Of a stretch of 64,000 nt of DNA, positions 4,722-64,000 are shown one piece after another. The notes below the pieces were generated by a model. The model was not told the origin of the DNA, made no database searches, and worked only from the letters and a program-made list of their open reading frames with translations. Every line of letters starts with the position of its first letter. The stretch's first letter is position 1. This DNA comes from Pseudogymnoascus verrucosus (Eukaryota). The DNA lies in NCBI GenBank assembly GCA_001662655.1, contig KV460227.1, one strand, 5' to 3'. The translations under genes were made by a program, and so were the position numbers.

Positions 4722-4942
4722 ATGGGTGAAGGGGATGGAGAGGATAGGATGATATGAGATTGTATATAGCAGGGAATCTTCGGAAATAAAATAAAATCAG
4801 AGCGGAGACTGCCCAACACAGATAAACTTCGTTATAGTTCTAAAACTTTTCGTAAATGCATTAAGCCACCCAAGAATCGAATGTATCACTTCCAGATATT
4901 GTAGATCTCTTCCAGCGGCGGAAATCTAGCCGTATGCCCAGA

Positions 4943-10473: not shown

Positions 10474-11863
10474 TGTGCGTGTCAGTTGACGATAGTTAGG
10501 GGGTTTGGGTTTCGTAAACGCATGGTGATACGTAAATTTACAAGGCAACTAGATAGAAGTATATTTAGACTTGTGTTCTGTAAGGTGTTTTCATTGTGAG
10601 TTCTTGTAAGTAAGCATGTTGTTTTGACCGAGTGGCAGCTAGGCACAGCCCCTGCCAAGACGGGGCAATAGATGAGAGATGATCGACCCTCGCCCACGAA
10701 TACCAGGTTGAGAACCAGGGAGGAACTCATTGACAGTAATGGGGGTAGATGAACTTAGATTCCTAAGATAGTGGCCTGCAACTCTAAAAGACCTCCAAGT
10801 CAAGCTAGAGCTCCCCGTTCCAAGGACCAGGAAATCCGCGACCCCGTACATTATTTGCGATATCAAATCCAAGGTCCCCAACAGTGTCGCATACCACCGC
10901 AAGCAAGCAAGCATCAAATTATGCATTCCCAAAAAGGTATACCCTAACGCCATGAATCATCACCGAGCGCACCCAGCACATTATTCTCTCCCACCGCCAA
11001 ACTTCAGTCTCCGTCGAGTGATGGCTCAGTCGTACGTAACGCGGCCCTTGCTACCGAAGGCCAAGCTCCATTTCTTCATGCCCCAGCGGCGCACATAGAG
11101 AACGTGTGGGATGACCGTGTACTGGTGCATCCTGCGCGTGTGGTTGTAGTGGAAACCCATGTCGAGATATTGTTGTTTATGTTAGGATGATTGGTTGGTG
11201 GAAGATTATATCTGCAGGCCAATGTTAGTTCCATTCTTACGCGCGATAGAGGCGCGAGCAGCTCACAGTTTGGTTTATCTCTGAGGAATCGTAAATCTGA
11301 ATTTAACAGAGAGGTGTTGTCGAAGGGGGATTTTTTGTCTATTTATTTGTCTCAAATCAAGACTTGGAATGTCGGGCGCCTATCACGTATGCCAAGTATT
11401 TGCGTTAGGTGGTTTTGCGGGGCAGGAGTGGCGTTGGTGTGTGTGGCTGGACAGAGCTCTAAGCCACGATTCGCGGAAGTCGTGTCTTCTGACTCGCTTG
11501 TTAGAGATTCCGTTATAGGAGGCGAGCCATTTCTGTGTGAACACAACCATGGAGATACACGTCTCAACCTTTTTAATATTTACGCCTCTTGGTAACCTTA
11601 TCCTAAGTCGATTTTTTCTATGTTTAGATGTATGTCAAGCGTGCCTGCGAAGGACAGCGAAGCTAGAATTGAGGTCGCGATCTAGTGGGCCAGGCTGAGG
11701 AATGTCTTGCGGGTTCCTCATTGCCATGTGCCATTGCTGAAAGGTTAAGCTGGCTCAGAATACCCCACACGTTGGCCATGTTGTGACTGAAGTTTGACAC
11801 AAGATATCATAAGCCTCATACCTAAATATTAACATAAATTCTATCAACTGCGCACGAAGTACC

Positions 11864-12256: not shown

Positions 12257-13481
12257 CTAAGCCTCAATTACGACCTTTACCACTACATTTCCCTCCTCAT
12301 CCTTTCCATTTTTTGCCAAAATAAAAGCCTCCTCCGCCTTGTCTAAACTTCTTTTGTGTGTGACCAGCTTGTGTATCCTTGGTAACTTCCCACTCGAGAT
12401 CAGCGTAATCGCTGTTGGATACGTATTTGCGTATCTGAAAACGCCGATAATGTCGACTTCGCGAAGCGCAGCAGCACCTAGGGGTAAAGTCTGTACTGCT
12501 CTTCCCATACCGATGAGGACGATTTTCCCACCAGGCTTTGACGCAAATATTCCAGTCTGCACACAGCTCGGCACACCAGTACACTCGTAGACTCTGTCGA
12601 ATCCACGCACGCCAGCTACCTCAGCAATCTTCGCCGCAAGGTCCTGGGCATCTTTAAGGACTTCATCGATTTCGGTCTTCATTGGTGCCTGCGGAATTAG
12701 GAACGTCTTTGTGGCCAGGTCGAGGTCTTTTGCGATTGTAAGACGCGCCGAATCGATGTCGGCAACTACTACTTCGCTCATATCGTGTGCTCGTAGAACT
12801 GCAGCAGTGAGCAGCCCGATTGCACCAGCACCAAAGATGAGTGTTTTGCCACCGGCGGGTGCCTGTGAGCGGTTTACGCCGTGTATGGAGACTGAGAGAG
12901 GTTCGATGAGAGCGGCTTGGTCAAAGGTGACATTTTCTGGGATTCTATTTCTGTTAGGTTCTGCCCCATCTTGTTAACGTTGCAGCTGCAACATACCTGT
13001 GGCACAAATCCGCGGGGTGATTGATTAATTCTGCCAAAGTCCCATCGGCATGCGGATAAGTCTTTGCACTACTTTTGAAGAGCATCTCCTCGCAAATATT
13101 ATACCTTCCTCCTCGACACAGCTCGCAGGTTCCACAAGCCATTCCGACTTCCAAGGCTACTCTGTCGCCCACACTCAATGATGTAACCGAGGAACCGATA
13201 ACTGTTACAGTGCCGGCCGACTCGTGGCCCAAACAGAGGGGTGCGAGAACAGCAAAAGCTCCATTGCGAAAGTCGCTGTAGTAGTGGAGATCTGATCCAC
13301 AGATCCCAGTGCTGTGGACGGCGACTTGGACTTCGTTGGGCAGAGGACTTTGAATAGAGCGTGTTTCCTAGAGGGTTATTAGTTAAAAATGGCGAGTTGA
13401 CTGTTGATGCGCGGTAAATACCAGCCGGAGATCCTTGGATCCATGGAGCATGAGGATCTTGTTGGGGACCGTAGTGACCAT
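12257..13481 (-). CDS. Zn-dependent medium-chain polyol/sugar-acid dehydrogenase (sorbitol DH family); candidate L-idonate 5-dehydrogenase (GluE-like)
   Basis: Three exons; GICGSDLHYY, GHESAG, structural-Zn CGTCELC..RYNIC, GAGAIG, ECTG, GVFRYANTYP. Substrate is inferred from cluster context. Confidence 0.88.
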
Positions 13482-14134: not shown

Positions 14135-14974
14135 ATGTCATATTTAGAAGGCTTGTTTGGTCTAGAGGGCCAAAAGGCTCTTGTTACGGGCGGTACAAGA
14201 GGAATCGGGCAGACCATGGCCCTCGCCCTCGCACGAGCAGGCGCAGACATCCTCCTGGTTCAAGTTCGTATTGATATAGATCCTCCTTACCCAAACCAGC
14301 TTCTGACTTCTTCGCAGCGAGACACCACCAACAAAGCGACACACGATCAAATCATAGCACTGGGACGTAAATGCACGATATACACTGCAGATCTTGCATC
14401 GCAGGAGTCGGTAGCAGGTATTCTTCCAAAAATCCTTGCTGACGACCACAAAATCACTATTCTCCTCAACTGCGCCGGCATACAGCGTAGACACCCATCT
14501 GAGAAATTCCCATCGAATGACTGGGATGAGGTTCTGCAAGTCAACTTAACAACCGTCTTCACCTTGTGCCGTGATGTGGGCGCGCATATGCTCTCGAATG
14601 AACCTGATTCCGCCAACCGTCGCGGATCTATCATCAACATTGCATCGCTCCTCTCCTTTCAGGGTGGGCTTACAGTGCCAGCCTACGCAGCTTCCAAAGG
14701 TGGAATTACACAACTCACAAAAGCTCTTTCTAACGAATGGGCATCAAAGGGCATCGCTGTGAATGCAATTGCTCCGGGATACATTGCTACTGAAATGAAC
14801 ACTGCGTTGATTGATGATGAGAACCGAGCAGCAAGTATTTTGGCAAGAATTCCAGCAGGGAGGTGGGGGAAACCGGAGGATTTTGAGGGAGCTGTGCTCT
14901 TTCTGGCAAGTAGAGCGAGTATGTATGTAAGTGGAGAGGTGTTGACTGTTGACGGGGGGTGGATGGGAAGGTAA
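14135..14974 (+). CDS. Short-chain dehydrogenase/reductase, KduD/IdnO-like; candidate 5-keto-D-gluconate reductase (GluF-like)
   Basis: [53 protein letters not shown]. One in-frame 54-nt GT-AG intron at about 14264-14317. Confidence 0.9.
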
Positions 14975-15328: not shown

Positions 15329-18116
15329 TTAAAAGAATCGATTCAAATCATCATCTAGCCAACCAAGATCGTTCCAAGATAAGCTTCCGCGCCTTGATGG
15401 TTGGGTAAACTGCTGTGCGTTATTGTTGCTAAAGTTCAAATCTATTGGATCTGGCTCTCTGGTCAAAAACTCGCCTACTGCTTGTAGATCAAGCCATGAG
15501 AATTCGTCTGGTGCGTTAATGGGCGGTCGTTGCACCATTAATGCTGGATGAGGATCTGTGACAGAAATGGTTGTTCCATCCCGTTGGGCCACTTCTTCAT
15601 CTGTTTGAAGCCATAATAGTTCCAGCAGTTGAGCGTATCGTAACCCAAATTCGCCTGGCCGTGCACTTCCAGCCCGTAGTCGTGAAATGGAATCTTTAAT
15701 CATCCGTCGAACGCCTACCTTCTCCTGGGATCCTAAAACACCAAGAGACCAAGCTTTGTACAGGAAAACTGCCGCGTTTACACAATACCTATCGCATATT
15801 AGGGAGAGCCAACAAAGACGAGATGTGGAGTTGTGGAAAAATGTTTAGGGTGGAAAGGAGTCCATACAATGAAAATCTCATGGGAAAATGGCGAAGGCTA
15901 GTATCAGGATGGCTGAAGTTGTTTACGACTGTAAGCAAGCATTTGGCGGCGTCGACAGATTCGTATATAAACCTTGCGTCTGGTAGAGCGCCGACAAGAC
16001 CTAGAGCGCTCTCTTCAAGGCCTAAACTGTCCTTTTTTTTGGAAGATATCGTGCGAAATGCTGTTGCTTGAAATGCGTAGGCACTGTTGTATAAGCGGAG
16101 ATACTCGTAGGTCATTTGCAGTGTTATCTTTAGGTTCGGAGAGCCTTAGTGCAAAGAACGGTTAGTCTACTCTGAAAGCAGGCAGTTGAAGTTTATTTAG
16201 ATGGGAAGGATAAGCATTAGCAAAGCAAAGATGACATCCAAAAATCATTTATGGTTTTTATACTAAGCGTCGACTTACAAGTTAATGTTCCCCAAACACT
16301 TTTCCAGCTGTTGATTGCAGCTCTGAAGTCATCAATGTACTTCACGTAATTACCCACTAGCATCATCTTCACGCTGCTGCCCATACCTGAATACAATACG
16401 TCGTGGACGTTTCCGAAAAGTTGGATTAGCTCAAGCATAGCTTGGAAAATACTAGCATGATCTTCATCTGTTGCCGATTCAGGCTGCAGAGTTGGATGTC
16501 TACCTGGGCCAGAAACAGGGCCAGGCCCTCGAGACCAAAATGCTCGTCCAATTCGTACTGAAATTTGTCGGTCTGAAATGTAGCATGCTATGAACGCAGT
16601 CAGTTACGAACCTAATGTACCTAACAAACCCTTATGAAGCCTCGTAAATCATTTATGCCATGGAGAACTCGAAGAAATGTCACCATAAAAGTTGATCAGC
16701 ACTCACCAGCCCAAGCCAACCTACGACGATTATAATGAACCATTCGCTCTTCGTCGTCATTCTTAAAAGATGTCCTATCCAACCTCAAATAGTAACCTAT
16801 TCGAAGGGCTAAGCCAACATGCATCCAAGCCGCCAAGTCCTCTTCTCCACAGCCAACTTCCTTGACATCAGACAGGGCGCTTTGAGGCTCCCACTCAGCT
16901 AGCAACAATAATGCTTCGACTGCTTCGACGTCGCATTTTTTCCCCACGGAAAGTTCGGCTACAAGCTGGTTCATATACTTCGAGCAAATCTCAAAGATCT
17001 TCGTGTCACCTGGTAGATCCTTTGCAGCGATAGTGATCATTGCCGTCAACAGATGCGGTTCATGTTGCGCCGTATCTGCTAGAAAAGCAGTGTTGAGCGA
17101 TCTTTTGGGAGTAATCGGGAGATATGGATGATACAAAGTCGCAAATCTGAATATCTATTAGCCTCAAATGTTGGCGGTATTTAATCAATACATCGGAAGG
17201 ATTACCTGCCAACCAAGTCAATAATTTGATCTTGGCTAAGTAACTGCATGGTAACTAAGTGATAAGGAATGAGGTTCATGCTTGCTGTGTGCTGAGTTCT
17301 GGGCAATTCATGTCCAATATTGCCGCCACCGTCAGATTGAAAAGTGTAGTCTTGATATGGTACTCGTTGGTGGTTCTGAGCAGCAGAATCCTCGGACATT
17401 TGTGCTGCTGCCGCATTCTCTGCAGCTTGGCTCAAGAAGTTGAGGGCCTCGGAGGTGTTATGAAGGTTTGTAGATGCAAATGTATCTTCTATCGCGGCTG
17501 CCATATTGGAGCTCGGCGAATGTAGGCTTTCATTTATCCCATGTTGTTGTTGTCGTTGCTGCTGCTGCTGCGGGTTATTATAACCCGAAGTCGACGGAGT
17601 CTGCCCCAAGTAGCTCTGTTCGTATATTTCCGAGTTCGGGGCATGAGGAGAGGTTTCGTGTGCGTTACTTTGGGCTGGGGAAGTGGCTTCTGGGATGGCT
17701 TTTGATCTTCGTATTCGGCGTCCGCCTCGATTCGAGCTTCCGAGTATGCATTCGACTCCATCCCGTACGCATCGCTGGCAAGGAAGTGCTCCGGCAGGTC
17801 CATGTCCGTCTCTGTAATAGCAATATCTTAGTCTAGGCGATTCTGAGGCCCACAGGTGTCATTTTGTCAAATTCAAACATGTGCAAATCGTGCGCGTGAT
17901 GTATTCCCCATTTAATACTGCAGCATAGTTTCAAGGTCTGAAGCCGTCACTGGGTAAATAGCCACAGCCCACAGGCCAAATTATAACGAGATAAGGCACT
18001 TACAGGTTACATTTGGACTTTCGTTGACGGCATCTCAAGCAGGCCTTCGAAATGCGTTTTTGCGGTTGTGTGCGAATACGACTGGGCCGAGCGTCATCGT
18101 TGGGTGGAGTAGGCAT
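15329..18116 (-). CDS. Zn2Cys6 transcription factor, ARO80-like, with fungal-specific TF middle domain
   Basis: Spliced binuclear cluster KACLRCRQRKSKCNL/DGHGPAGALPCQRCVRDGVEC followed by SNRGGRR; later exons VEALLLLAEWEP, AAWMHVGLALRIGY, YLRLY. Confidence 0.88.
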
Positions 18117-18520: not shown

Positions 18521-19813
18521 ATGGCGACACCCAGCGCATTGCTCATCGGAGAGATTACCCATGTTAAGAACGAGTGGGAATCTTTGGCGCCTGCCATCGA
18601 CCTCAAGGTATGAAGACTTGGAATTCCTGTTTTAAGCTCGATCTTTGGCATTGACACTTCACTCGTAGGAGTACCCAGAGGGCAGCCGAGAAGAATTCCT
18701 TGAGAACTGCAAGACCGGCAGATACGACTCGGTCAAGGCCATCTACAGGAGCAATGTTTCAACATCAGTGAGTGCTCCCACGGGTTGGTCAAGTTGAAGC
18801 TTGTCTGATTAAGTTATAGATCACTGGGCCTTTTGACGAGGAATTAGTAGCCGCCCTTCCTCCTTCCATAAAGTATATCTGCCACAACGGAGCTGGATAC
18901 GATAACATCGATATCCCTGCCTGCACAAAGAAAGGTGCGGTTCAAAAGCCCCCAAGCCTAACTTCGGGCCTTTAAGTCTACGTTCGAGCTGCTAACGAAG
19001 CACTAGGTATCTCTGTTTCGAGTACGCCGCAAGCCGTCGACAATGCTACTGCAGATGTCGCAACCTGGTTAATGATCGGAGCTTTAAGAAGAATATCAAT
19101 TCCATATTTCGCAATTCAAAACAGTAAGTTTTGGCTGCATATGACCCCAGATATCATTTTTTTACTGTTATCTAGATCAATGGAGAGGTGCGGCAGGCCT
19201 AGGTTATGATCCACAACAGAAGGTCCTTGGCATCCTCGGAATGGGCGGCATTGGAAGAGTGAGCAAGATAGATTCCAGTTTCTATGATATGTACTGATAA
19301 TTTGAAAAGGCCCTGGCACGCAGAGCCCGTGCATTCGACATGAAAATCATCTACCATAATCGAAAGCCGCTTTCCCCTACACTGGCTGGAGATGCAACCT
19401 ACGTCTCATTTGATGAGCTTCTCTCCCAATCAGACGTCATCAGCCTCAATCTCTCCTTGAACGCATCAACTCGGCACATCATTAGTTCAAACGAATTCGA
19501 GAAAATGAAGGATGGAGTTGTCATCGTCAATACTGCAAGAGGCCCACTGATTGATGAGGCTGCTTTGGTAGCTGCACTTGAGTCTGGGAAGGTCTTTTCA
19601 GCTGGTCTTGATGTCTTCGAAGAGGAACCAAAGGTCCATGCTGGACTGTTGAATAATGATAAAGTTGTCATTCTGCCCCATATGGGTACATCTACGTTTG
19701 AGACTCAGGCAAATATGGAGCGTCTTGTGCTTACGAACCTAAAGAAGGCAATCAACGAGGATAAGCTTGTGACCCAGGTATCTGAGCAAGTCGACCCAAA
19801 ATGCAATATATAA
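18521..19813 (+). CDS. D-isomer-specific 2-hydroxyacid dehydrogenase (glyoxylate/2-ketoaldonate reductase); candidate 2-keto-L-gulonate reductase (GluC/GluD-like)
   Basis: Six exons; HNGAGYDNID, ATAD, GILGMGGIG, YHNRK, VNTARG, GLDVFEEEP, LPHMG. Confidence 0.9.
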
Positions 19814-20446
19814 ATGTTGTGTCATCCATGACAAACATAGCTAGATATGTTTTATTATACTTGATAGAGGATTGACCCGTCGAAATGAACCGATATCTCT
19901 TAAAATGATATACCAATTGAGCTCGCTATAGCCTGTGCTCATTCAAGATTAACATAAGTTTGATGTTCCTTCAATCAACATCCCAAGCGCATCACTAAAT
20001 ATTCACTCTATCTCCAAAGCTACAGTCGTATCATATTTGTTGCTGTATAGTATCCCCATATCTACAAGCGTAAATAAACGTCGGTCGATTAAAAATGGCT
20101 GGTCCGAATAGTGTGCTGTGTCAAATACAAAGCTTTATGTTCATTGGTAATGAATCCATCAAGACAAACTACCAAAGACGCTCACAATATGGCGTTATAT
20201 TCCTTACTTATACAACCTTTAGACTTTAGACTTACCCACGCACATTGCCTTTATACAACTAACGGCAGCCATTGCAACTTTAGCTTTAACAGCTTGAGTT
20301 TGCTAAGATTTTACATTTGAATTAACACGATATACAATGCCAGCATTTCCTTCGCTATCCTCGCTGAAGAGAAGTTTCCCCTAGACCAGATAACTCGATG
20401 TAAATATAAGATGTGCCCATATACCACATAACAAACCCTCATATAT

Positions 20447-22519
20447 CTAGGTCTCAGCCTCGCATTTGTTATCCACAACCTCAGCATAGACTCTGTTTTT
20501 CCTTGCCACATCGTCAGCGTTAACTCTGTCGTGAAAAACCTCGTCCATCTGCTCAAGAGTCTTTCTGCTAGTCTCTGGGACGAAGAAAAACGTCCAGAAA
20601 AATGACAACAGACAGAAAACAGCGAAGAAGACGTAGGCTCCATAGCCAGTGTTCTGAACTAACGGAGGAGTAACTAGTCCCTACAATGGTGTTAGCTAAA
20701 GGGAGTTTCAGGTGTGCACTTTAAAAACGTACAATGATGAAGTTGTTCAACCAATCTGGCACTGTTAGTATAGATTCTCCAAAAGCCTGCCTCATGGGTT
20801 ATACTGACTTGAGCAGGTTGAGATTGCAACACCCTTTGCTCGAAGGGACGACGGGAAAATTTCAGCTGGCATAGCCCAAGGGACCGGCCCCCAACTGGCT
20901 CCAAATGATATCATATAGAAGAGCAAAAAAGCAACGCTAGTCCAACCTTCAGGCTTATGGGAGGGCCAGTCATCTGAAAATTTGCCAACAAGAATTGCTA
21001 TGATCAGATGAGAGACGAACATGCACATGCTTCCATAAAGCAAAAGAGTACGGCGGCCAAATCGGTCCATAGTCCAGAGACTGGATACAACACCAAAAAG
21101 CTGTGTAATGTTCAGTACTCCCGACATGATCAGCTGCATTTCATAATCGAGACCCATTGTACTATTTCAGGATTTGATTAGTATTGGCCCAAGACACCAC
21201 AAATAAGGTGGCTTACCCAAATAGCGTTGGCGAATAATAAATTAAAGCGTTAATTCCAACGAACTATGGTCTGTTAGGCTTGTGTTCGATATTGAAAGGA
21301 CACGGCATACCTGTTGGAAAAACATAAGACCAGCACCGACGTGGGTCCTTCTCCAACATCCTGGTTTCAAGCAATCCGTCCAAGAGACGATCTCCAGCTT
21401 CAGCTTGTTCATCTTGGTATTCTCCATAAGATTTGGGTGGCGCTCTGCCATAACCTCCTTGTGGAATCTTGACTCGGCAATTATGTCCATCCACTCCCGC
21501 CGAACTCTGTTATCAGATATGGGCAGTTGTCGTAACTTTGCGAGGCTGACCAGAGCCTCGTCATCTCGCCCTTTGGATGCAAGCCATCGAGGAGAGAATG
21601 GAAGTAGGAATATTCCAGCCCCAAGAATAATGCTAGGAATAATTTGAATGAGAAAAGGCAATCTCCACGACCATTCCGATAGAATCTCTCTTGTCCCATA
21701 TGTGATCCAGAACGAAATTACGATGCCAGCAACGATGCTGAGTTCTTCGAAAACGAGGAGGGTTCCACGGATTTCAGGAGGTGATATTTCTGAAATGTAG
21801 AGCGGAACAACCATACTCATCCTGATAGGTTGTTAGCTCTGCGGAATATTTCCTCGGCGGGAAAACTGACATTCCAATACCAACTCCGCCAATAAACCGT
21901 GCAACGACCAGCATTTCGTAATTCATAGACGCAGTTTGGATTACAGATCCAATAATGAATATAACGCTCGCCACAGCGATTGAATATTTGCGAGAAATCT
22001 TATCAGCAATCCAACCTTGATTTAAGGCACCTGAACAAGTCAGTCATGGTCACTACAGAGATCGGCATAAGCCAGTAAGAATGGTACCAATCAGTGCTCC
22101 GAGCTCGATCATGCCTGTCATGAGGCCTTTGTAAAACCCTGCGCCGGCTGCAGCCTCTGACACTTCTGGGAACCGCTCTAGAAACTGGGGCATTACTAGA
22201 ATGATCGAGACGACGCCCTGGCTAAATAATGGTTAACAAATATATAATCGTTGATCTGTCCCAGGATGCCTTACTCGTATCCAAAGAGCATGCCTCCTAT
22301 CGCGGCGAAGGCAGCACAGAGGGCGACATAACGGGATGCAAAAATTCCTCGAAAGCCTAATATACAGTGAGCATAGGCACAGGTGTAGAGCTGGCCACAC
22401 AACAACATACCTGAGAGCCCGTAGCCTTCTTCTTCCGTCCCACTTAGGGAAGTGTCCTCGATTTGAAGAGGCGCGTCGGCTTCATGTTTTTCACCCTTAG
22501 TGGTATTTATTGTACTCAT
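20447..22519 (-). CDS. MFS sugar porter family transporter
   Basis: GGMLFGY, GWIADKISRK, PLYISEISPPEIRGTL, PFSPRWL, FFQQ, MDRFGRR, WGPVPWAMPAEIFPSSLRAKG, VPETSRKTLEQMD; multi-intron. Confidence 0.92.
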
Positions 22520-23468: not shown

Positions 23469-24596
23469 ATGGCACCCCCTAGGCTCAGAGTTGGCTGTGC
23501 AGGCCTTGGCCGTATGGGCAAGCGCCATGCTCGTCACTTCCTCGAGCGCACAGCTCGTGCCGAACTGGTCGCTGTGAGCACTCCTGATGAGACCGAGTTC
23601 CAGTGGGCGCGTCAGCATCTCGAACCCTATGGTGTGACAATCTACAAAGACTATGATCAGATGCTCAAGCATGAAGATCTAGAGGCGGTGGTAGTTGCGT
23701 CAGTAACAACGGTGCATGCCGAGCAGGCCATCAAGGCCATTAATGCTAACAAACACGTCCTGTGCGAGAAGCCTCTCTCAACGAGCGTTGAAGTTGTGAG
23801 TTCTCATCTAGCGAGGAGTAATACTGTGCTTTTGCTAATCATGATATTCATGTAGTCCCAAACAGTTGTTGATGCTGCTCGCAAAAGGCCACACCTCAAA
23901 GTCATGTGTGCATTCTCTCGCAGATTCGACGACTCCTACCGCGATGCCTTCAACAAGATGGATGCTGGCCTGATTGGACGCCCATCGATCTTCCGCAGCC
24001 AGACTTGTGATATGCTTGACCCGAGTGGATTCTTCGTGGCCTATGCCGAGTTTTCAGGAGGTATTTTTGTGGATTGTTCGATTCACGACATCGATCTCGC
24101 CCTGTGGTTCTTCGGGCAAGACAGCATGGTTAAGTCAGTTGTGTCTAGCGGAATCACAGCTGTTCAGCCAGCACTTCAGAAGCACAAGGATTGCGATAAC
24201 GCAGTCGGAATTGTCGAGTTTTATGGTGGCAAGATTGCATACATCTACTGCTCTCGCATGATGGCTGCTGGCCAGGAGGATTCGACCGAGATTATTGGTA
24301 CAGAGGGGAAGGTCACAGTCAACACCCAACCAATGTCAAACCTCGTAAACATCTACGAGCCAGGCGGAATCCGTCGCGAGATTCCACAAAACTACTACGG
24401 ACGTTTCGAACAGGCGTTTGTGAATGAGGCGAACGAGTTCACAGCCGCTTGCTTAGATGATCTGAAATTACCAATGAAGCTGACTGGCGCCGTCCAGGCC
24501 GTGAAGATTGGCTGTGCCTTGCAGGAGGCTATGGTCACAGGAAACAAGATTTGGTTCGATGAGACTGGTGTAAGGATAGAGAGGCCACAATTATAA
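23469..24596 (+). CDS. Gfo/Idh/MocA family NAD(P)-dependent oxidoreductase (inositol dehydrogenase-like)
   Basis: GCAGLGRMG Rossmann motif, HVLCEKP, FSRRFD, GGIFVDCSIHDID; one intron at about 23796-23856. Confidence 0.9.
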
Positions 24597-25381
24597 GCAA
24601 AACAATATTTCTAAACAATCGAGGTCAGGCCATGTCGCCGCGCGGGATAGACACATACCCTTTATTAAGTTGTTAGGTATAAATAGCATCGCATTTTTAA
24701 GACTATATAGTTTTAAATATATCACAGATTTAATTCTAATTATTCCATCGTGTTGCGCTATTGAGACTTCGCATTTTCAAAGCCCAAAAGCAGAGACTCG
24801 GAGGTTGCAGGTTGTGATAGCAATGGCAACAAGTTATTAACCGAACAGCGGGAAAAGCTGCCCCTATCGGACTGACTAGAGGACCCGCACGGAGGTAAAC
24901 TAAGTAGCCGACACCAAGGGCAGTTGCCGAACATTTAGTACCCATGGCGTACAGTACACCCCAAGACGTACAGCACACCAAAGAATGAGTTAACAAGTCT
25001 CCGTTATTTTATTCTGTCTGTCAATTCCTACTTGTCCGTCCCCTCCATCTACGCGCCTCTGGTCTGGATCAACTATATTCCTTCTCTGACTAGGCAATAT
25101 CCTCACGACACTTGATACTTAGGCAGCCGAAGTGGGAAACACTGTGGATCTGGTATTCCCAACATAATCACACAAGGACCGGTATGTTGCCATTGGAGGA
25201 AAAATTCGGTATAGTATCGTGAGGTTTCTCTGGGCGATGAGAGATATTCGAAGAGGTACGAGTAAATAGACATTAAAAGCCTTAATATTTCTCAATCTGT
25301 AGTTATTTCACTCTTTGACAAAGGCCAATATTACCTCTAAATCAGCCCAGCCTAGTTCAACTTCTAATACCACCTTACAAT

Positions 25382-27071
25382 ATGACGGATAGAAGTATAA
25401 ATGCTTCTGAGGGTAAGAATTATAGCTTGCAAAGCGTCCCTCCCATGGGTTCTTCAGCAGGATTGAGTACTAAAACGCATACTAGTGCTCAAGCACAATA
25501 CGTCGGAGAGCTGTTGGGTGACATTATATGGCAAAGTGTACGATGTGAGTGACCCTGTTCTCTGTATATGCATAGCGCTTATCTAAATAGGTCACAAACT
25601 TCGTAGATGAACATCCAGGAGGCCGTCAATCCATTATGAGATTGGCAGGTCGAGATGCAACAGAAGACTTTGATCTCGTTCATCCTAAAGGAACACTTGA
25701 ACAGAATCTGCCCGCCGAAGCGTATCTAGGAAGTGTGTTCTTGGATACCCAAGAAGCAACAACTGTAGCGGAAAGCAATTCCTCGGACAGCGCCAGTGAA
25801 ATGGTTCCCCTGGATCAATTATTAAGCATCGCAGATCTCGAGAAACAAGCCTCTAAACAACTGAAAGATAAGGCATGGTCATATTACTACTCAGCGTCCG
25901 ATGATGAGATTTCGAAGAGATTAAACTCCGAGAGCTACAAGGCCATTCTGATGCGCCCTAGAGTCTTTTGCGACGTTGAAACTGTTAGCACCGAAGTAAA
26001 GTTGCTGAATACTCCTTTCAAGCTCCCAATTTTCATAGCCCCGGCCGCCATGGGCCGCCTGGCACACGAGTCGGGTGAATGCGGCATCTCAGACGCCTGT
26101 GGTGCTCATGGCGTGTTGCAAATCATCAGCAACAACGCATCCTATTCACTAGAGAATATTGTGGAGAACTCGGCCCCAGGACAAGTCTATGGCTTTCAAC
26201 TGTACGTGCAAAGCGACAGCCGGAAGAGCGAGGATATGATTCGACGTGTCAACAAACTGAGGCACAAGATTAAATTCATCGTTTTGACGGTCGATGCACC
26301 AACCCCTGGAAAACGAGAGCAAGATGAACGCATCAAGAACAAAGATTATCCGTCCGGGCACGGCGCAAAGCCAACTAAAGCGCCAGAGGCACCCGCCGGA
26401 GGAATAGGGAAGGCTCTATTCGCAGGAACCAGTGGAAGCTTAGTTTGGGGAAAGACTCTCGGCTGGCTAAGAGCTCACACCGATCTGCCTATCGTTATCA
26501 AAGGCATCCAGACTCACGAAGACGCATGTATGGCCGTTCGCTACGCGCCTCAAGTGCAAGGAATAATATTGTCGAATCATGGTGGTCGGGCATGTGATAC
26601 TGCTCCGCCAGCTCTGCACACTCTGTTAGAGATCCGGAAGTATTGTCCCGAAGTTTTGGAGAAGATTGAAGTTTGGATAGACGGAGGGGTGCAGAGAGGG
26701 ACCGACGTCGTGAAGGCACTCGCCCTTGGCGCGCGTGGGGTAGGATTAGGGAGAGCTCCATTGTATGGTTTGAGTGTAGGCGGCGCTGCTGGAGTTTCCA
26801 GAATGATCACGAGTAAGTCCTAGCCCTTCCTAAAAATAATGGAGAGGCTAATGCGATTTTGTTTTACAGTACTCCGAGAGGAAATTGAAACAGCGTTGAG
26901 ACTACTTGGAGTCAACAGCATTGCAGAGCTGAGTCCTAAACATGTATTGTTACCCTTCTCCTAGTATTTAAAGTGTCCTGAGGCTTATGATATGTCTAGG
27001 TCAACACGCGGGCGCTGGAGGCGCTCATATATGCTGGCGGGGCAAATTCGGACTTCACGTCAAAATTATGA
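25382..27071 (+). CDS. Flavocytochrome b2-like FMN-dependent L-2-hydroxyacid dehydrogenase (cytochrome b5 domain + FMN barrel) with C-terminal PTS1 SKL
   Basis: b5 domain [66 protein letters not shown]. Last exon [23 protein letters not shown]; no mitochondrial presequence. Confidence 0.9.
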
Positions 27072-28053: not shown

Positions 28054-29138
28054 ATGACTGATACCCTTTTCAAGCTCAACACCGGGGCCTCGATACCGGC
28101 TTTAGGTTTAGGTACTACTTCCTACTGAATCCCCGTCTGGTTCAGATAGCTAAACTTTCTAGGGACGTGGCAATCTGCTCCTGGCGATGTCAAGAAATCC
28201 GTCGCTCACGCTCTCGGCGTTGGCTACAAGCACATAGATTGCGCTTATTGTTACGGGAACGAGGACGAGGTCGGTGAAGGCTTAGCTGAAGCGTTCAAGT
28301 CGGGCCAGGTCAAGCGAGAGGATATTTTTGTGACAACCAAGCTGTGGTGCACATATCACACACGCGTGGAGGAGAACCTCGATAAGAGCTTGAAAAGTTT
28401 GGGGTTGGATTATGTTGACCTTTACTTGATGCATTGGCCTTGCCCAATGAACCCAAATGGTACTTTGACTCCTGGAGCTCCTTGGCGATTTGTGGCTAAA
28501 AATGAGACCAGGAAACCACGAGAAATTCCCCAGGCTTGCTGATGGGTCTCGCGATCTCGATAAATCATGGTCGCATGTTGAAACATACAAGACGATGGAA
28601 AAGCTTCTCAAAACCGGCAAGGTGAAGGCGATCGGCGTTGCGAATTACAGTGTTAAATATCTCGAGGAGCTGCTGCCACAGGTCTCCGTTGTTCCAGCTG
28701 TCAACCAAATAGAAAATCACCCATCACTACCGCAACAAGAGATTGTTGATTTCTGCAAAGAGAAGGGCATTCACGTCACGGCATACAGTCCATTTGGAAG
28801 TACCGGAGGCCCAATGTTCAGTGCAGAGTCAGTACTTGAAGTCGCCAAGAGACGTGACGTCTCCGTAGGCTCGGTCCTATTGAGTTATCATAGTATGTAT
28901 TTATTATCCATTTTGATCGTTCACTGCTGATCAGCTTGAAGTCGCTCGAGGAAGCTCCGTGCTTGCCAAGTCCGTTACGCCTTCGCGCATTGAAGAGAAC
29001 AAGAACGTCATCCAGCTTGACGCTACTGATATGGCGATTCTCGACAAATATTCGAACGAATTACAGGCTAATGGAAAGCTAAAGAGATATGTGTATCCCG
29101 ACTTCGGGGTTGACTTTGGATTCCCGGATAAATCTTAA
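28054..29138 (+). CDS. gar1: Aldo-keto reductase, Gar1-type NADPH-dependent hexuronate (D-galacturonate/D-glucuronate) reductase
   Basis: [72 protein letters not shown], terminal [16 protein letters not shown]. Closely matches my recollection of Trichoderma reesei Gar1. Confidence 0.88.
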
Positions 29139-30044: not shown

Positions 30045-31010
30045 ATGGCAGCCATAATGCGTGCACCAGATTCTACCTCTTCAGAGTCATGGAATAGCAA
30101 ATTCCAAGCACTCGAGGACACCTCTGACAACATTGACGCCGTCAACGCCATGAAAGCTGCATCGAAATTCGATGCCGAGAAAGACAAGACGCAGTTCAGA
30201 AAATTTGAAGACGCCTGCGACCGTGTGAAGAACTTCTACCGCGAGCAACACCTTAAGCAGACCGTTGAATATAACCGGCGCGCACGCGAAGAAATGAAGT
30301 CCAAGACCCGCGCAAAGATGACCATCTGGGAAGCGATGGAGACGTTGAACACACTCATCGATAACTCAGACCCGGATACATCCCTCTCGCAGATTGAACA
30401 TCTTATGCAGACGGCCGAGGCGATGAGAAAGGATGGAAAGCCTCGCTGGATGCAGCTTACGGGCTTGGTTCATGACCTGGGTAAACTCCTGTTTTTCTTC
30501 GGAGCTCAGGGCCAATGGGATGTGGTTGGAGATACCTTCCCCGTGGGATGTGCATACTCGGAGAAGATCATTTATCCAGATACCTTTGTCGACAATCCCG
30601 ACTACGGCCATGAGGTGTACAGCACGAAGTATGGAATCTACGAGCCAAGATGCGGACTTGACAACGTCATGCTATCGTGGGGCCATGATGAGTATTTTTA
30701 CCTAATCGCCAAAGATCAGTCGACGCTACCAGATGAAGCATTAGCGATGATTCGATATCACAGTTTCTACCCGTGGCATTCAGGAGGTGCATACATGGAG
30801 CTCATGAACGAGAAGGATGAGAAGATGCTAGAGGCTGTGAGGGCTTTTAATCCGTACGATCTATACAGCAAGAGTGATGATGTTCCAAGCATAGAGGAGT
30901 TGAAGGTAAAGCCCACTGCTCTTGTTTGCAAAACATTACTAATTACCTTATAGCCATACTATATGGAGCTCATCGACGAGTTCTTCCCGGCGAGGATAAT
31001 TAATTGGTGA
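30045..31010 (+). CDS. MIOX: myo-inositol oxygenase (myo-inositol -> D-glucuronate)
   Basis: FYREQH..QT, DNSDPD, QIEHLMQTAE, HDLGK, QWDVVGDTFPVGC, SWGHDEY, IRYHSFYPWH, FNPYDLYSK; short 3' exon PYYMELIDEFFPARIINW*. Confidence 0.96.
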
Positions 31011-31365: not shown

Positions 31366-34084
31366 TCATGAATCACACGACCACGCACGCTCCAAGTCCC
31401 TCACAATCGCCCCCGTTGGGCGAGCATACTCGACCTCTAGCTTATGGAGCAGGTCCAGCATACCTATTTGTTGGTCGCGGTCGGTGACGTGCTCACCGCA
31501 AACAGCAATAGCCATCTGTGCAATAAGAAGTGAGGATTCTGATGGGTTGTTTGAGAGCGCAACTCCACATATTCGTAGGACGATCTCTCGAATTTTTGCC
31601 GAAATGCCACGAAGTGCTGCGGCCACACCTGGTCCCAACCGAGGGACGGTTGGGTCATAGGCGATAAGTAGGATACGAGCAAGATCTAGATACAGCAGGC
31701 CGGAGACATGAGTGTCTGCTAGGTACCAGATTTGTGGAAAGATCTCTCCATTGTGGTGGTTAGGTTCTTTGTAGTGGATAGACGAGAATGACAAGGGTTT
31801 GTGGGACTCCCATGAGTCTTCGAAGTCTTTCAGTTCATTCCACCGTTGAACCTTTCCGTTGCTAGATGATATATCTCCCCCAAAACAGAATTGCAACACA
31901 TCGGCACAGAAAACAATAAGGCGGTTTGCCCATACAGTATCATCGGCCTCAGCGAAGGATCTGGGCCAAGACCACGCGTCTGTATGAAGACGAATTGGTC
32001 GTTGTTTCATGAAGGCTGACGTTATCTCTTGCCGAAGTGCAACCCTGAATGAAGCATGTTGGAGTGGCGTAACGTCTACGGTATAGCCATTAATCGCACT
32101 TTCAATGTGAAATGGCGTTGATGTTTGTGTCTCTTGTGAGAAAGTCTTCCGACTTGGTGAAGATACAGCATCGACTTGGCCGTTCATGAAGATCTGAAAT
32201 GTACGTAAAAAGGTCTCTGACTCTTCGCTTGTAACTGAAGTCTGGTGTTCTTCGTAATACTGAAGGATCACTGCTGCTGCAAGCAAATCCTTGTCTCGAA
32301 CATGCTCGGCGTCTTTGGAGAGCTCAATGAGATATGCCAAAACTGCGTTGTGATATTGTATTGCAGTCTCGGAGGTGAGATTGTATAGAGGTATACCCTG
32401 ATACTCTACTACACCAGCTTGGTTCTTGAATCTTGGGGCTTGAGCTAGATGCCTTGCGGACGCTGTGAATATTGCGTTTAATAAAGGCGGACACCGTCTG
32501 GCTCGTTGAGGTACATCAAGAGCAAAATGTCTAGAAGGATCACAAACGTCAAACTAGGTATAAGTTAGTGCATGTTTTAGACACACTGACGCGGCATAGG
32601 ATTGATTGATGAGTAACTTGCCCAAGGTGCAATGAAGTCCACAAAATGCCTCATTAAACATGCACATTGGGTTGTGGTCCACTAAAACGAGTTAGCATAG
32701 TTTATTATCCAATGTTTAAGAAAAGACACACATCGTTAGGCCAGAAAAAGGTCTTCTTCCAGATCTCTGGTTTCAGGAGACCTGATGAGGCACTTGGTAC
32801 AGCAGCTGCAGCCGAGTCTGCAAGACGTTGGCTCTTTGCTATGTTCAAGGTCGAATTTGGACGGAGTGGCGGCAACGATGGAAGAGAAATTGGTGGGAGT
32901 GAAGTCGTCCTCTGCAAGAGGGTAGTTTCGTTTCTAGGAGACTCATAAACGAAGGTTGGGGCTTGTAACGATTGGAATTTGGTAAAGTCTTGCGACTGAT
33001 AAGGGTCTAAAGCGTCGATATCGTCGTTGGTTGTGTCACTCCTAGACGCTTGAATGGACATGGTTGTTTCAAGCGGACTGAAAGCAAAAGGTCTAGAAAA
33101 AGCTTGATCAACTGATGAAGTATTACGGATGGTGTTGTGGATTTCCCTCGGTATTGAGTTTGAGGTCGAGGTTGTCCGAGTGGTTCTGTCATATTCCTTT
33201 ATTGTAACACTGGCTTCTGTTGGAATGTCCTCCTGAGCATAATAATTTTCAAGCTCTGGCCGTTCATCCACAAATTGTAATTTAGCTAAGACGAAATTGC
33301 CACATTAGCTAAAATAGTAAGTTGAACACCTGATATAGAAACTCGAGATGGGTAAGATAAATGAGCTGAGAAATGCATAGATGCTGATGATGAAAATCTT
33401 GTCTTCTAGACTGAAAAATGGTTTGCTCTTCCTCTTTGCCTGCCTTAAGATAGTACAATGGATGGCGGACGTAGAAACACGTCTCTAGAAGATGATCCAT
33501 CCTTCAATATTCCTCCATGCCAACACCGCCAAGCAATGAAGATATCATTCTCCGTCTTGTTGCTTGATCATTCACAATTATAGCTCCCATAATCTAATGA
33601 AGAAAATAAACTTACTATTGCTAGATTGCGTAAACCATGGCTGATCAGTCTTAAATGCAGCATCATATCTCGCAGTCGATCCATGACGGAATTTCAACTT
33701 ATCCTTGTTGCGTACACAAGGCGCATTCAAGCGACGGCACAGCTTGCAGGTGGAATCATTATCATCAGCTGCTCCAAGTCAGTACATTGTGCACGGAAAT
33801 CTTAGGATTGCGCCGAATCTGGTTGTTAGATCGATCGTTAAAGAGGAGCAGAGGTAGCTGCTCTGGAAGAAAATTGATCTTAATGGAGCCTGAAAGTGAG
33901 TGCGAGGTTGCGTGATATTTACTACTCCTCGAAAGATAAATGACCATCGAAGATTAAATGAAAGGAGGAGCTTACTCGTGCATTTTTGATGACGGTCTAA
34001 AAACAATCAGTGGATGCGATACAACGGGGAAATGGTGCATCTCTTGCCTCTACAAATCTCGCAGGGATCCTCAATCTCTGACAT
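31366..34084 (-). CDS. Zn2Cys6 transcription factor with Fungal_trans_2-type C-terminal domain
   Basis: Spliced N-terminus MSEIEDPCEICRDRHQKCT..DSTCKLCRRLNAPC..LKFRHGS; later CLMRHFVDFIAPW/FDVCDPSRHFALDVPQRARRCPPLLNAIFTASARHL, LLAAAVILQYYEE, RQEI, WANR. Confidence 0.85.
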
Positions 34085-43286: not shown

Positions 43287-43767
43287 GGCGTTATTAGGAC
43301 AGAGGGGCTGGTGGCGGAGGTTTGTTGCCGTAAGGTTGTTTTCGCGTTTTCCGTGGGAGATGGTTTGGATATGCTTCGGTGTCGATTGATCGTGAGACTG
43401 CAGAGGAAACTAGGGGTAGAGGTAGGACTAGATTGAATTCCATCATATGCGATGCGATGCTATGCTATGCATGTACTATACTATATTACATTACCCCTCT
43501 CATCCTCATCCAGGCATCCCTTCGCTGATTCATAATACACACTCATCCTCCCATCCATCATCCATCAAATATACATTATCCCCTCGTCCCAAATCGACCC
43601 AAAAGACAAATGCAACCACCCCCCCAAACGCCCGCCCAAAGAAACCCCCCTTTTCAAAAAACAAGTCAAAAGAAGACGCTCAAACACCCGGGGAAAAAAA
43701 CCCAAAACCCAAAAGCAAAAAGCAAAAAAGGGGTAACAACCCCACAAGCTCAACACATACCGCACGC

Positions 43768-63955: not shown

Positions 63956-64000
63956 TAACTTTTTAAGGTTCTTCGTTTCTCCCTTCCGTGTCGTCAATCC

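Follow-up and report, generated by a model that had tools for sequence, protein, structure and literature searches.

Which enzyme of the fungal D-glucuronate pathway oxidizes L-gulonate to 2-keto-L-gulonate, and could it be encoded by the flavocytochrome b2-like gene found here? In Aspergillus niger the gene for this step "has not yet been identified" as of April 2026 (PMC13158570), so the literature gap to which an earlier note on this DNA had drawn attention is real and still standing. The enzyme is called "elusive" in the available text of another paper (PMC5814732), the step has been an orphan since 2016, with its authors stating that published work had no description of the reaction, and a 2026 metabolic model still carries L-gulonate oxidation without a gene. 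Our literature search found no paper that ties cytochrome b2 or FMN enzymes to L-gulonate.

By Fischer configuration, L-gulonate and L-galactonate are 2S and L-idonate is 2R. The FMN alpha-hydroxyacid dehydrogenase family is S-specific, and the sole free (2S)-2-hydroxy acid among the intermediates of the A. niger-type pathway is L-gulonate. GluC and GluD are D-specific (PMC4870679, PMC5306355). The stereochemical argument of the earlier note, which paired an S-specific FMN enzyme with a D-specific reductase to carry 2S L-gulonate to 2R L-idonate, is therefore correct. Below we describe the gene, VE01_05319, within the window, by which we mean the whole 64,000-nucleotide stretch of Pseudogymnoascus verrucosus DNA that was analyzed. 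On the basis of gene position and chemistry, we consider it a credible candidate for the L-gulonate 2-dehydrogenase of a Pseudogymnoascus inositol/glucuronate cluster, a reading whose chances we regard as evenly balanced.

An Intact and Expressed Flavocytochrome b2-like Gene

The gene (Table 1) runs from an ATG at 25382 to a TGA at 27069-27071 and is interrupted by four GT..AG introns of 73, 46, 57 and 56 nt. The spliced product is identical at 485/485 positions to XP_018130364.1 (P0245), which is VE01_05319 of P. verrucosus and is publicly annotated as L-lactate dehydrogenase (cytochrome). Transcript contigs from two studies skip these introns, all four of them in runs X1 and X2 and the first two in run X5. 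The transcript contig begins ∼56 nt 5' of the ATG, and no upstream ATG was found in the ∼56-nt 5' UTR that it delimits. The gene is intact, expressed and spliced. Spliced contigs for the Zn-dependent alcohol dehydrogenase (Zn-ADH), the 2-hydroxyacid dehydrogenase and the aldo-keto reductase (AKR) of the same locus are also present in X1, X2 and X5; spliced contigs for the short-chain dehydrogenase (SDR) occur in X1 and X2, with X5 cover confined to the part of the SDR gene downstream of the intron. The myo-inositol oxygenase (MIOX) gene, the MFS transporter gene and most of the Gfo/Idh/MocA (Gfo) gene have no X1/X2 contig cover. Cluster parts of this kind were left out of the evidence, and the genes were not ranked by depth.

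Table 1. Features of the window, with positions counted from its first letter
Feature	Position	Strand	Basis
Zn-dependent alcohol dehydrogenase, 372 aa, sorbitol-DH-like; candidate L-idonate 5-dehydrogenase (GluE-type family)	12257..13481	-	Pfam ADH_N + ADH_zinc_N
SDR, 261 aa, gluconate-5-DH-like	14135..14974	+	Pfam adh_short
Fungal-specific transcription factor, approximate extent	15332..17858	-	Pfam Fungal_trans / Fungal_trans_2
D-2-hydroxyacid dehydrogenase	18521..19813	+	Pfam; introns and poly(A) end from transcript contigs
MFS sugar transporter, extent estimated from ORF fragments	20314..21832	-	Pfam Sugar_tr on two ORFs
Gfo/Idh/MocA oxidoreductase, 354 aa, VE01_05318, inositol-dehydrogenase-like	23469..24596	+	Pfam
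8-mer GGGACGGA, 340 nt upstream of VE01_05319 ATG	25035..25042	-	k-mer search
Flavocytochrome b2-like gene VE01_05319, CDS including stop	25382..27071	+	spliced model, 485 aa, 5 exons
Exons of VE01_05319	25382-25412, 25486-25544, 25591-26812, 26870-26943, 27000-27071	+	
His38 codon (HPGG), predicted first haem ligand of b5 domain	25612..25614	+	aligned with Cyb2 HPGG histidine
His61 codon, predicted second haem ligand	25681-25683	+	aligned with Cyb2 LH histidine
Asn212 codon (full-length N212), Cyb2 Leu230 position, ISNNAS vs ISTLAS	26134..26136	+	HMMER alignments to 1kbj, 1ltd, 1sze
SNHGGR: His360-Gly-Gly-Arg363, predicted catalytic base and carboxylate-binding Arg (Cyb2 H373, R376)	26578..26589	+	alignment
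C-terminal Ser-Lys-Leu, canonical PTS1 tripeptide	27060..27068	+	spliced model
Aldo-keto reductase, 310 aa, 4 exons; candidate D-glucuronate reductase	28054..29138	+	Pfam Aldo_ket_red; introns from contigs
myo-Inositol oxygenase (MIOX), 302 aa	30045..30953	+	Pfam MIOX 8.5e-119; exact sequence in protein collection
Second fungal-specific transcription factor	31369-33304	-	Pfam Fungal_trans / Fungal_trans_2

The Active Site and the C-Terminus

VE01_05319 belongs to the FMN_dh family. Pfam identifies an FMN_dh domain (9.6e-102), whose match to PF01070 scores 341 bits against a cut-off of 24.9 and covers profile positions 1-349 of 350, and a Cyt-b5 domain (4.5e-22) at residues 8-76, fused N-terminal to the FMN domain as in the flavocytochrome b2 architecture. 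His38 and His61 of the b5 domain align with two Cyb2 histidines, those of its HPGG and LH motifs, which we take from the Cyb2 literature to be the haem ligands, and the His pair is retained in most members of the family representative set. The intact FMN alpha-hydroxyacid dehydrogenase motifs reported in the earlier note are all found in the exon-3 translation, as GFQLYV, LTVDAP, IVIKG and LSNHGGR. The catalytic set is complete: Y128, Y235, D265, R272, K334, H360 and R363 align identically with Tyr143, Tyr254, Asp282, Arg289, Lys349, His373 and Arg376 of Cyb2 (signature YAYDRKHR), the roles of these residues being presumed from the Cyb2 literature.

Ala198 and Leu230 set the substrate specificity of Cyb2. 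VE01_05319 keeps the Ala198 equivalent and has Asn in place of Leu230, and in this does not match the small hydrophobic Ala198/Leu230 pocket that fits L-lactate. HMMER places its QIISNNAS opposite QMISTLAS in the wild-type Cyb2 chains 1kbj and 1ltd and opposite QMISTAAS in 1sze, which bears out the substitution that the earlier note had read from the sequence and confirms, at the level of alignment, that the second Asn of ISNNAS is position 230, the match being far beyond chance. Further distinct Cyb2 chain sequences, 1sze and 1szf, are among the matches, and one has Ala at 230, consistent with the specificity role. A reading of this Asn as a mark of adaptation to L-gulonate found no support. 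The same Asn is found in 120/120 best homologues and is invariant in a 54-sequence alignment; in a set of 150 family representatives, of which 134 aligned here, it is more frequent than any other residue, with 39 cases. Its carriers include a housekeeping-like paralogue that is found throughout the Pezizomycotina, outside such clusters in the two long loci examined. Since Asn212 is family-wide, it is no specific pointer to a sugar acid.

The consensus of PTS1, the peroxisomal targeting signal, is a C-terminal (S/A/C)-(K/R/H)-(L/M), to which the -SKL of VE01_05319 conforms; import itself is predicted. The -SKL end depends on the last intron, which is skipped in X1 and X2 contigs, and the genus orthologues with full models end in -SKL or -AKL. 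A mitochondrial intermembrane-space presequence was not found, with just 7 residues ahead of the b5 domain and -SKL at the C-terminus. Among the six modelled cluster enzymes, VE01_05319 is the only one with a PTS1, and its step would therefore sit in a different compartment from those of its neighbors. We know of no peroxisomal electron acceptor for the b2 haem.

An Inositol/Glucuronate Gene Cluster

The earlier note had invoked a clustered D-specific reductase. Pfam and PDB matches show that the cluster is real and larger than that note implied: within ∼21 kb, VE01_05319 is accompanied by MIOX, AKR, D-2-hydroxyacid dehydrogenase, Zn-ADH, SDR and inositol-dehydrogenase-like genes, a transporter and two regulators, the first of which contains a transcript contig over 16707-17811. 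The top PDB match of the Zn-ADH, whose introns come from transcript contigs, is sorbitol dehydrogenase 1pl6 (1.1e-42). The SDR matches 2-deoxy-D-gluconate 3-dehydrogenase (6.4e-60) and gluconate 5-dehydrogenase (3.2e-50), and the AKR matches Ara1, aldose reductase and aldehyde reductase. The D-2-hydroxyacid dehydrogenase has fungal glyoxylate reductase 3wnv as its top match (3.3e-64) and also matches 6pex, listed as "aldo keto reductase" (5e-25); its closest Aspergillus homologues are 66-70% identical and carry no gene names. The Gfo protein, encoded directly upstream of VE01_05319, has six PDB matches at E ≤ 1e-8 (best 3.1e-33), five named as inositol dehydrogenases and one simply as "Dehydrogenase".

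A family-appropriate gene is present for 5/6 steps from inositol to gluconate, and the inositol-dehydrogenase-like gene is, besides VE01_05319, the sole cluster enzyme gene without an assigned step. The uronate reductase, D-2-hydroxyacid dehydrogenase, Zn-ADH and SDR families of the A. niger-type pathway are all represented, as family-level matches to the descriptions in PMC4870679, PMC5306355 and the available part of PMC5814732. For the galacturonate route, the window yielded neither a dehydratase nor an aldolase. A k-mer search of the promoters gave two 8-mers common to 4/6 cluster promoters; random segment sets, with controls that include coding DNA, gave at least two such 8-mers in 3/500 draws. 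The 8-mer GGGACGGA also occurs at 13953, 22434 and 27609 in other cluster promoters, and has five window matches against 1.53 expected, four of the five in cluster intergenic regions. An upstream 8-mer common to four cluster promoters, that of VE01_05319 included, lends weak support to the grouping.

Distribution within and beyond Pseudogymnoascus

Locus tags place the VE01_05319 orthologue next to or near a D-2-hydroxyacid dehydrogenase in eight further Pseudogymnoascus genomes. The two genes have consecutive tags in 05NY08, 03VT05, WSF 3629 and F-3808, an MFS-Gfo pair lies between them in F-103, F-4519 and F-4281, and the Gfo tag adjoins the flavocytochrome gene in 24MN13. An AKR tag follows the flavocytochrome gene in 6/8 (05NY08, 03VT05, WSF 3629, 24MN13, F-103 and F-4519). 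In strain 23342-1-I1, the 2-hydroxyacid dehydrogenase VE03_09350 and the 310-aa, AKR-sized VE03_09351 have consecutive tags, and the flavocytochrome gene may be missing there or may be unannotated.

In the tree, the window clade consists of Pseudogymnoascus and two further sequences, and the Pezizomycotina-wide paralogue forms a separate clade that follows the species tree (SH-aLRT 99). Pseudogymnoascus also has a conserved-type paralogue, P0106 (F-4517). The branch to the cluster clade is long and well supported, which suggests functional divergence. The window clade differs from the conserved paralogue at just eight diagnostic positions, one of them in an active-site motif (Thr268 vs Val, at the place of Cyb2 S285); none is an obvious specificity switch, and clade-specific active-site changes were dropped as support. 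A metagenome scan for clustered relatives kept 80 of 597 confirmed loci. Eight of these are at ≥47% identity, two of them (L001 and L002) with long flanks, and the other 72 are at ≤40% and were taken as bacterial-type. L001 and L002 are conserved-type copies beside a 6-phosphofructo-2-kinase gene, and no match to MIOX, AKR, 2-Hacid_dh, Zn-ADH or SDR lies in their flanks, which were covered for up to 10 kb in either direction. No second genus with a cluster-type copy was found among the 80 kept loci, with flanks examined in two. With the clade limited to Pseudogymnoascus and two further sequences, other fungi with the pathway must use something else, and VE01_05319, as a genus-restricted paralogue, cannot itself be the A. 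niger enzyme or an orthologue of it.

Proposed Role and Alternatives

We propose that VE01_05319 is an (S)-2-hydroxyacid dehydrogenase of the flavocytochrome b2 type, directed to peroxisomes by its -SKL end, that was recruited as a dedicated paralogue into a cluster serving myo-inositol and D-glucuronate catabolism. MIOX would form D-glucuronate, which the neighboring AKR would reduce to L-gulonate. VE01_05319 would then transfer a hydride or proton from C2 of L-gulonate (2S) to FMN, using the His360/Arg363/Tyr/Lys/Asp set, to give 2-keto-L-gulonate, and the electrons would exit through the b5 haem to an acceptor. The neighboring D-specific 2-hydroxyacid dehydrogenase would convert 2-keto-L-gulonate to L-idonate (2R), and the Zn-ADH and SDR would carry L-idonate through 5-keto-D-gluconate to D-gluconate. 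The substrate, product, acceptor and compartment in this scheme we infer. A high-potential flavin/haem acceptor would allow an otherwise unfavorable hydroxy-acid oxidation to run forward, and the use of such an acceptor rather than NAD(P) would account for the failure of NAD(P)-based A. niger screens to find the step.

The public name of the protein would be apt if VE01_05319 were a general short-chain L-2-hydroxyacid (L-lactate/glycolate) dehydrogenase like the conserved paralogue, present in the cluster by duplication and without a sugar-acid role. Its active-site signature differs from that of the conserved paralogue by the single Thr/Val change, Asn-230 is common to all 120 best homologues, and Cyb2 has been detected in Histoplasma peroxisomes, according to the available part of PMC13343957. 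Against this, the linkage to a 2-hydroxyacid dehydrogenase recurs in the eight further genomes (with the AKR in six) in two different architectures, P0106 could cover the general role within the genus, the long cluster-clade branch suggests divergence, and position 230 differs from the Leu of the lactate enzyme; we consider a general role unlikely. Any (S)-2-hydroxy acid is compatible with the family chemistry, and the substrate might instead be another (2S)-2-hydroxy sugar acid of uronate or inositol use, such as a hexarate, oxidized at its S-configured end, or the L-galactonate (itself 2S) that is formed from D-galacturonate. A. niger GaaA reduces D-glucuronate and D-galacturonate alike, as stated in the available text of PMC5814732. 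However, the product of the MIOX in this cluster is D-glucuronate, three cluster families fit the L-idonate, 5-keto-gluconate and gluconate steps, and the galacturonate-route dehydratase and aldolase were not found within the window; we regard a different sugar-acid substrate of this kind as quite improbable.

The position of the Gfo gene directly upstream, and the confinement of PTS1 to the flavocytochrome among the six modelled enzymes, would suit a scheme in which L-gulonate is oxidized by the Gfo enzyme, or by an unlinked or multi-enzyme route, and the flavocytochrome acts in peroxisomes in an accessory capacity, redox or detoxifying. We give this scheme very little weight: the solved relatives of the Gfo protein are, with one exception, named as inositol dehydrogenases, the Gfo gene is absent between the reductase and the flavocytochrome in four genomes, and joint use of iolT, iolG and MIOX for inositol and pinitol has been reported in a filamentous ascomycete (available part of PMC9788770). 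A broader possibility, which we hold to be unlikely, is that the PTS1-bearing ISNNAS flavocytochrome b2 branch, found Pezizomycotina-wide including the A. niger group, comprises peroxisomal aldonic-acid (L-gulonate-type) 2-dehydrogenases and not lactate dehydrogenases. In that case the enzyme missing from the D-glucuronate pathway since 2016 would be the copy in A. niger, the Pseudogymnoascus cluster copy would be a dedicated duplicate, and biology would offer a way to get from L-gulonate to 2-keto-L-gulonate, the precursor of vitamin C, with a single enzyme.

For the orphan L-gulonate step, the cluster puts forward a specific protein whose stereochemical class fits. If VE01_05319 has the proposed L-gulonate role, it would complete the fungal D-glucuronate pathway and tie MIOX-dependent inositol catabolism to it in a single cluster; it would also provide an enzyme for making 2-keto-L-gulonate, the industrial precursor of vitamin C, from L-gulonate. 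Were that role refuted, the locus would still be a previously undescribed inositol/glucuronate gene cluster, and a large, probably peroxisomal flavocytochrome family without known substrate would still be indicated.

Relationship to Known Systems

Saccharomyces cerevisiae Cyb2 (L-lactate:cytochrome c oxidoreductase; 1FCB, 1KBI, 1LTD) shares with VE01_05319 the b5 haem domain and FMN TIM-barrel, with a full-length alignment at ∼5e-67 and conservation of the catalytic residues, the FMN/carboxylate-binding residues and Ala198. VE01_05319 differs in the Asn for Leu230, the -SKL end, the sugar-acid gene context and the absence of an N-terminal presequence, which in yeast Cyb2 is long and mitochondrial. 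The (S)-2-hydroxyacid oxidases (spinach glycolate oxidase 1GOX, human HAO1 and rat HAO2) share the FMN_dh fold and catalytic set, with E values from 1e-44 to 3e-53. These are PTS1 peroxisomal enzymes that have no haem domain and use O2, and the glycolate oxidase residue at the Leu230-equivalent position is Trp. Histoplasma capsulatum "Cyb2" (G217B_8374), compared here by annotation and not by sequence, is peroxisomal by proximity proteomics and mNG fusions; in the available part of the report, no substrate is studied and the protein is listed without a predicted PTS, unlike VE01_05319 (PMC13343957).

The Pezizomycotina-wide ISNNAS paralogue (among others, P0089 of Aspergillus tubingensis and P0106 of Pseudogymnoascus F-4517) is 54-59% identical to VE01_05319, with the same architecture, Asn and catalytic signature and with C-terminal ends that are mostly -SKL/-AKL. 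It differs in forming a separate clade and in lying outside such a cluster in L001 and L002; our literature searches found no characterized function for it. The A. niger D-glucuronate pathway comprises GaaA, GluC/GurA, GluD/GurB, GluE/IddA and GluF/KgrA, and the window cluster has, at family level only, one member for each downstream enzyme family and a uronate-reductase-type AKR. The cluster SDR has 261 aa and A. niger GluF 265 aa, the latter from the available text of PMC5814732. In A. niger, however, gluD and gluE alone are clustered and L-gulonate oxidation has no known gene, whereas in the window a single cluster brings together MIOX, the transporter, the inositol-dehydrogenase-like gene and the flavocytochrome.

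Gene Model and Active Site

The five-exon gene assembled from the DNA of this fungal window agrees exactly with the coordinates in the earlier note, and its spliced product is identical over 485/485 residues to VE01_05319 (XP_018130364.1, P. verrucosus), with Pseudogymnoascus proteins as the top homologues. All four introns are skipped in contigs from X1 and X2, two sequencing runs of one study, and introns 1 and 2 in an X5 contig from another. Joints 3 and 4 fall a few bases away from the GT..AG boundaries but give equal intron lengths, the contigs coming from 95-99% identical relatives. The runs were classed as RNA by guess only; this reading draws on the absence of introns from the contigs, on a loose poly(A) end of X1 at 19905, and on long contigs of X6, which are unspliced across most intron sites spliced in X1, X2 and X5.

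Removal of the last intron is what yields the C-terminal -SKL; this tripeptide is lost in the GenBank models that overlook the intron, which are 467 aa long and end in -LLPFS or -LLPCS. A transcript contig starts ~56 nt 5' of the ATG, and the DNA of that stretch contains no further ATG, which leaves no space for a presequence. Peroxisomal targeting is predicted for this protein but not for its neighbours: 0/5 of those modelled on contig joints carry a PTS1 end. Other GenBank flavocytochrome models are shortened to 443 aa and lack the N-terminus, and in four Pseudogymnoascus assemblies the counterparts of window 23469-27071 are merged into single Gfo/Idh/MocA (Gfo)-flavocytochrome models of 846-890 aa.

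Pfam places a Cyt-b5 domain at residues 8-76 (4.5e-22) and an FMN_dh domain at 117-464 (9.6e-102). Full-length alignments to yeast flavocytochrome b2 (Cyb2) chains reach ~5e-67, with glycolate and lactate oxidases scoring below them. The motifs listed in the earlier note (GFQLYV, LTVDAP, IVIKG, LSNHGGR) all occur in the exon-3 translation. In the printed alignments, equivalents of Cyb2 Y143, A198, Y254, D282, R289, K349, H373, R376 and both haem histidines are kept, and presumably have the catalytic and haem-ligand roles described for Cyb2. Since QIISNNAS pairs with QMISTLAS in the wild-type chains 1kbj and 1ltd (QMISTAAS in 1sze), Asn212 takes the place of Leu230, as had been read from the sequence.

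The observation of the earlier note stands, and its interpretation stands in part only. The Asn is not specific to this gene. It occupies the Leu230 position in 120/120 best homologues (with the query: SNNAS 109, or 108 without it, SHNAS 6, SQNAS 3, STNAS 2, SYNAS 1) and is invariant in a 54-sequence alignment; for these reasons Asn at 230 is, judged by sequence, the mark not of the window gene but of a large branch of fungal flavocytochromes b2 that awaits characterisation. When 1.84 billion clustered proteins were searched, 134 of the 150 best-matching representatives could be aligned here, and the residue is Asn in 39, Leu 31, Met 10, Ala 9, Ser 8, Tyr 6, Phe 6 and others 25. PTS1-like tripeptides are frequent among both homologues and representatives. 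In fungal-type relatives (P0280-P0429), at least 18 different residues fill this position; such diversity, with the many PTS1-like ends, suggests numerous peroxisomal 2-hydroxyacid dehydrogenase specificities that have yet to be characterised.

The Surrounding Cluster

Pfam was run on 173 stop-to-stop ORFs of at least 90 aa (the flavocytochrome exon-3 ORF separately) together with PDB searches. Beyond about 12-33 kb, the Pfam scan found nothing related to the cluster. Chain 6pex, labelled "aldo keto reductase" in the search output, we take to be grapevine 2-keto-L-gulonate reductase.

Genes of the cluster and their closest matches
Feature	Position	Strand	Evidence
Zn-ADH	12257-13481	-	Best solved relative sorbitol DH, 1.1e-42
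SDR	14135-14974	+	2-deoxy-D-gluconate 3-DH, 6.4e-60; gluconate 5-DH, 3.2e-50
Fungal transcription factor	about 15.3-17.9 kb	-	
D-2-hydroxyacid DH	18521-19813	+	Fungal glyoxylate reductase 3wnv, 3.3e-64; 6pex, 5e-25
MFS sugar transporter	about 20.3-21.8 kb	-	
Gfo	23469-24596	+	5/6 solved relatives (E <= 1e-8) named inositol dehydrogenases, 1/6 just "Dehydrogenase"
Flavocytochrome b2-like CDS	25382-27071	+	5 exons; GT..AG introns 73, 46, 57, 56 nt; X1 + X2 joints 25411>25485, 25544>25591, 26808>26866, 26945>27003 (one extra letter)
Aldo-keto reductase (AKR)	28054-29138	+	PDB search
Myo-inositol oxygenase (MIOX)	30045-30953	+	Pfam, 8.5e-119
Second transcription factor	downstream of MIOX; block end 33304		Pfam

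GluD is a D-isomer-specific 2-hydroxyacid dehydrogenase and GluE an alcohol dehydrogenase, their genes being clustered (PMC5306355), and GluC is likewise a D-isomer-specific 2-hydroxyacid dehydrogenase (PMC4870679). The neighbours match GluC, GluD, GluE and GluF at the family level, and the block 12257-33304, with MIOX, A. niger-type glucuronate pathway genes, a transporter, an inositol-dehydrogenase-like gene and two regulators, reads as one cluster leading from myo-inositol to D-gluconate. PMC9788770 has iolT, iolG and MIOX serving inositol and pinitol use in an ascomycete, which gives the transporter and Gfo gene ordinary roles. No description of a fungal cluster of MIOX with the A. niger-type pathway was found in the literature searched. 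The AKR beside MIOX could be the second D-glucuronate reductase, "still unknown" in A. niger according to PMC5814732. Its sequence-identical RefSeq counterpart in P. verrucosus bears the title "H/ACA snoRNP pseudouridylase subunit", apparently a misannotation.

Four cluster promoters carry the 8-mer GGGACGGA on the minus strand (13953, 22434, 25035, 27609; further copy at 47859), and four carry a second, AATGTGGG. CreA-like GTGGGG-containing 7-mers occur in 5/6 cluster promoters, the flavocytochrome promoter being the exception. At Gfo 24079-24115, X1 and X2 contigs match over 37 nt only, flanked on both sides by unlike GC-rich sequence; these transcripts probably belong to a paralogue or another organism. 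Upstream of the cluster (4182-8146, 9859-10548) lie an expansin-like EXPB1_D1 ORF, a multi-exon GH35 beta-galactosidase and a HeLo-domain ORF. Elsewhere, 42000-46000 is GC-rich (0.56-0.60 vs about 0.47) and holds long overlapping ORFs, 43771-45336 (-) and 44132-45247 (+), neither of which Pfam matches; a GGGAT(G) microsatellite sits around 47835-47866, a Kp4 killer-toxin-like domain (PF09044, 7.2e-30) in ORF 57863-58225 (-), and 62001-64000 has a GC skew of +0.37, far above the remaining window.

Linkage and Phylogeny

Gene order elsewhere was read from NCBI locus tags, AKR and MIOX being assigned by length (310, 305 aa) and presence in a looked-up protein cluster.

Linked loci in Pseudogymnoascus genomes
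Genome	Locus tags	Order
05NY08	VF21_07957, 07956, 07955, 07954	2-hydroxyacid DH, flavocytochrome, AKR-sized (310 aa), MIOX-sized (305 aa)
03VT05	VE02_03105, 03106, 03107, 03108	As in 05NY08
WSF 3629	VE00_02680, 02681, 02682	
F-3808	O988_02035, 02036	
24MN13	VE04_01739, 01738, 01737, 01736	01739 is Gfo
F-103, F-4519		2-hydroxyacid DH, one tag, fused Gfo+flavocytochrome model, AKR, MIOX
F-4281	V493_01218, 01216, 01215	
P. verrucosus (window)	VE01_05316, 05318, 05319	

There are two architectures, with MFS-Gfo present or absent between reductase and flavocytochrome; in both, the flavocytochrome has the D-specific reductase on one side and the AKR on the other. The clustering with a D-specific reductase noted earlier holds in the window and in other Pseudogymnoascus genomes. 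Strain 23342-1-I1 is a possible exception: VE03_09350 (reductase) is followed directly by VE03_09351 (310 aa), and the strain may lack the flavocytochrome, which is not among the 15 members listed out of 27 in one flavocytochrome protein cluster.

In a quickly built ML tree, with 49 sequences hand-picked from 121 and a midpoint root only, the window protein groups with three further Pseudogymnoascus proteins and two assembly-derived proteins (61-64% identity; SH-aLRT 99) on a long branch. The other 43, 50-59% identical, follow the species tree (Dothideomycetes, Eurotiomycetes, Leotiomycetes, Sordariomycetes, lichen fungi) and include a second Pseudogymnoascus paralogue, P0106. The two groups are told apart by just 8 positions of the alignment. 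One of these is in the D-A-P-x-P-G-K-R motif at the place of Cyb2 S285, where the window clade has Thr and the rest have Val. Asn212 and the remaining pocket do not distinguish the window gene from the Pezizomycotina-wide paralogue. Since the window clade is confined to the genus, A. niger must use another protein, possibly this conserved paralogue. Of 597 confirmed metagenome loci 80 were kept, 8 at >= 47% identity, and six of these were scanned. In the two with long flanks (L001, L002), a 6-phosphofructo-2-kinase gene lies upstream of the paralogue, and the flanks have no MIOX, AKR, 2-Hacid_dh, Zn-ADH or SDR match; in L006 and L010 the neighbours are Far11-like and Ras-family. In Toensbergia, the family member (MMC12_002466) and the closest 2-hydroxyacid dehydrogenase homologue (MMC12_005710) have tags far apart.

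A Candidate for L-Gulonate Oxidation

The gene for L-gulonate oxidation "has not yet been identified" as of April 2026 (PMC13158570), so that the gap in the A. niger pathway named in the earlier note persists. The literature searched yielded no paper combining "L-gulonate" and "cytochrome b2", nor one tying FMN enzymes to this acid. Candidates in PMC5306355 were induced oxidoreductases assayed with NAD(P). A flavin/haem-linked activity would be invisible to such assays, and the step may have been missed in this way.

The C2 hydroxyl points left in L-gulonate (2S) and right in L-idonate (2R) in the Fischer configuration, matching the stereochemistry proposed earlier. As L-idonate, D-gluconate and 5-keto-D-gluconate are all 2R, L-gulonate is the sole free (S)-2-hydroxy acid of the route. 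Enzymes of the FMN family are S-specific, those of the GluC/GluD family D-specific. We infer that the flavocytochrome would oxidise L-gulonate and the neighbouring D-specific reductase would reduce the product, inverting C2. For the orphan step in Pseudogymnoascus, the window gene is the strongest candidate so far, a proposal from sequence to which we give about an even chance, and its novelty would be a new putative specificity inside a known enzyme family. Transfer to a flavin/haem acceptor would render favourable an oxidation that is unfavourable with NAD, the same acceptor logic that sets yeast Cyb2 apart from NAD-linked lactate dehydrogenase.
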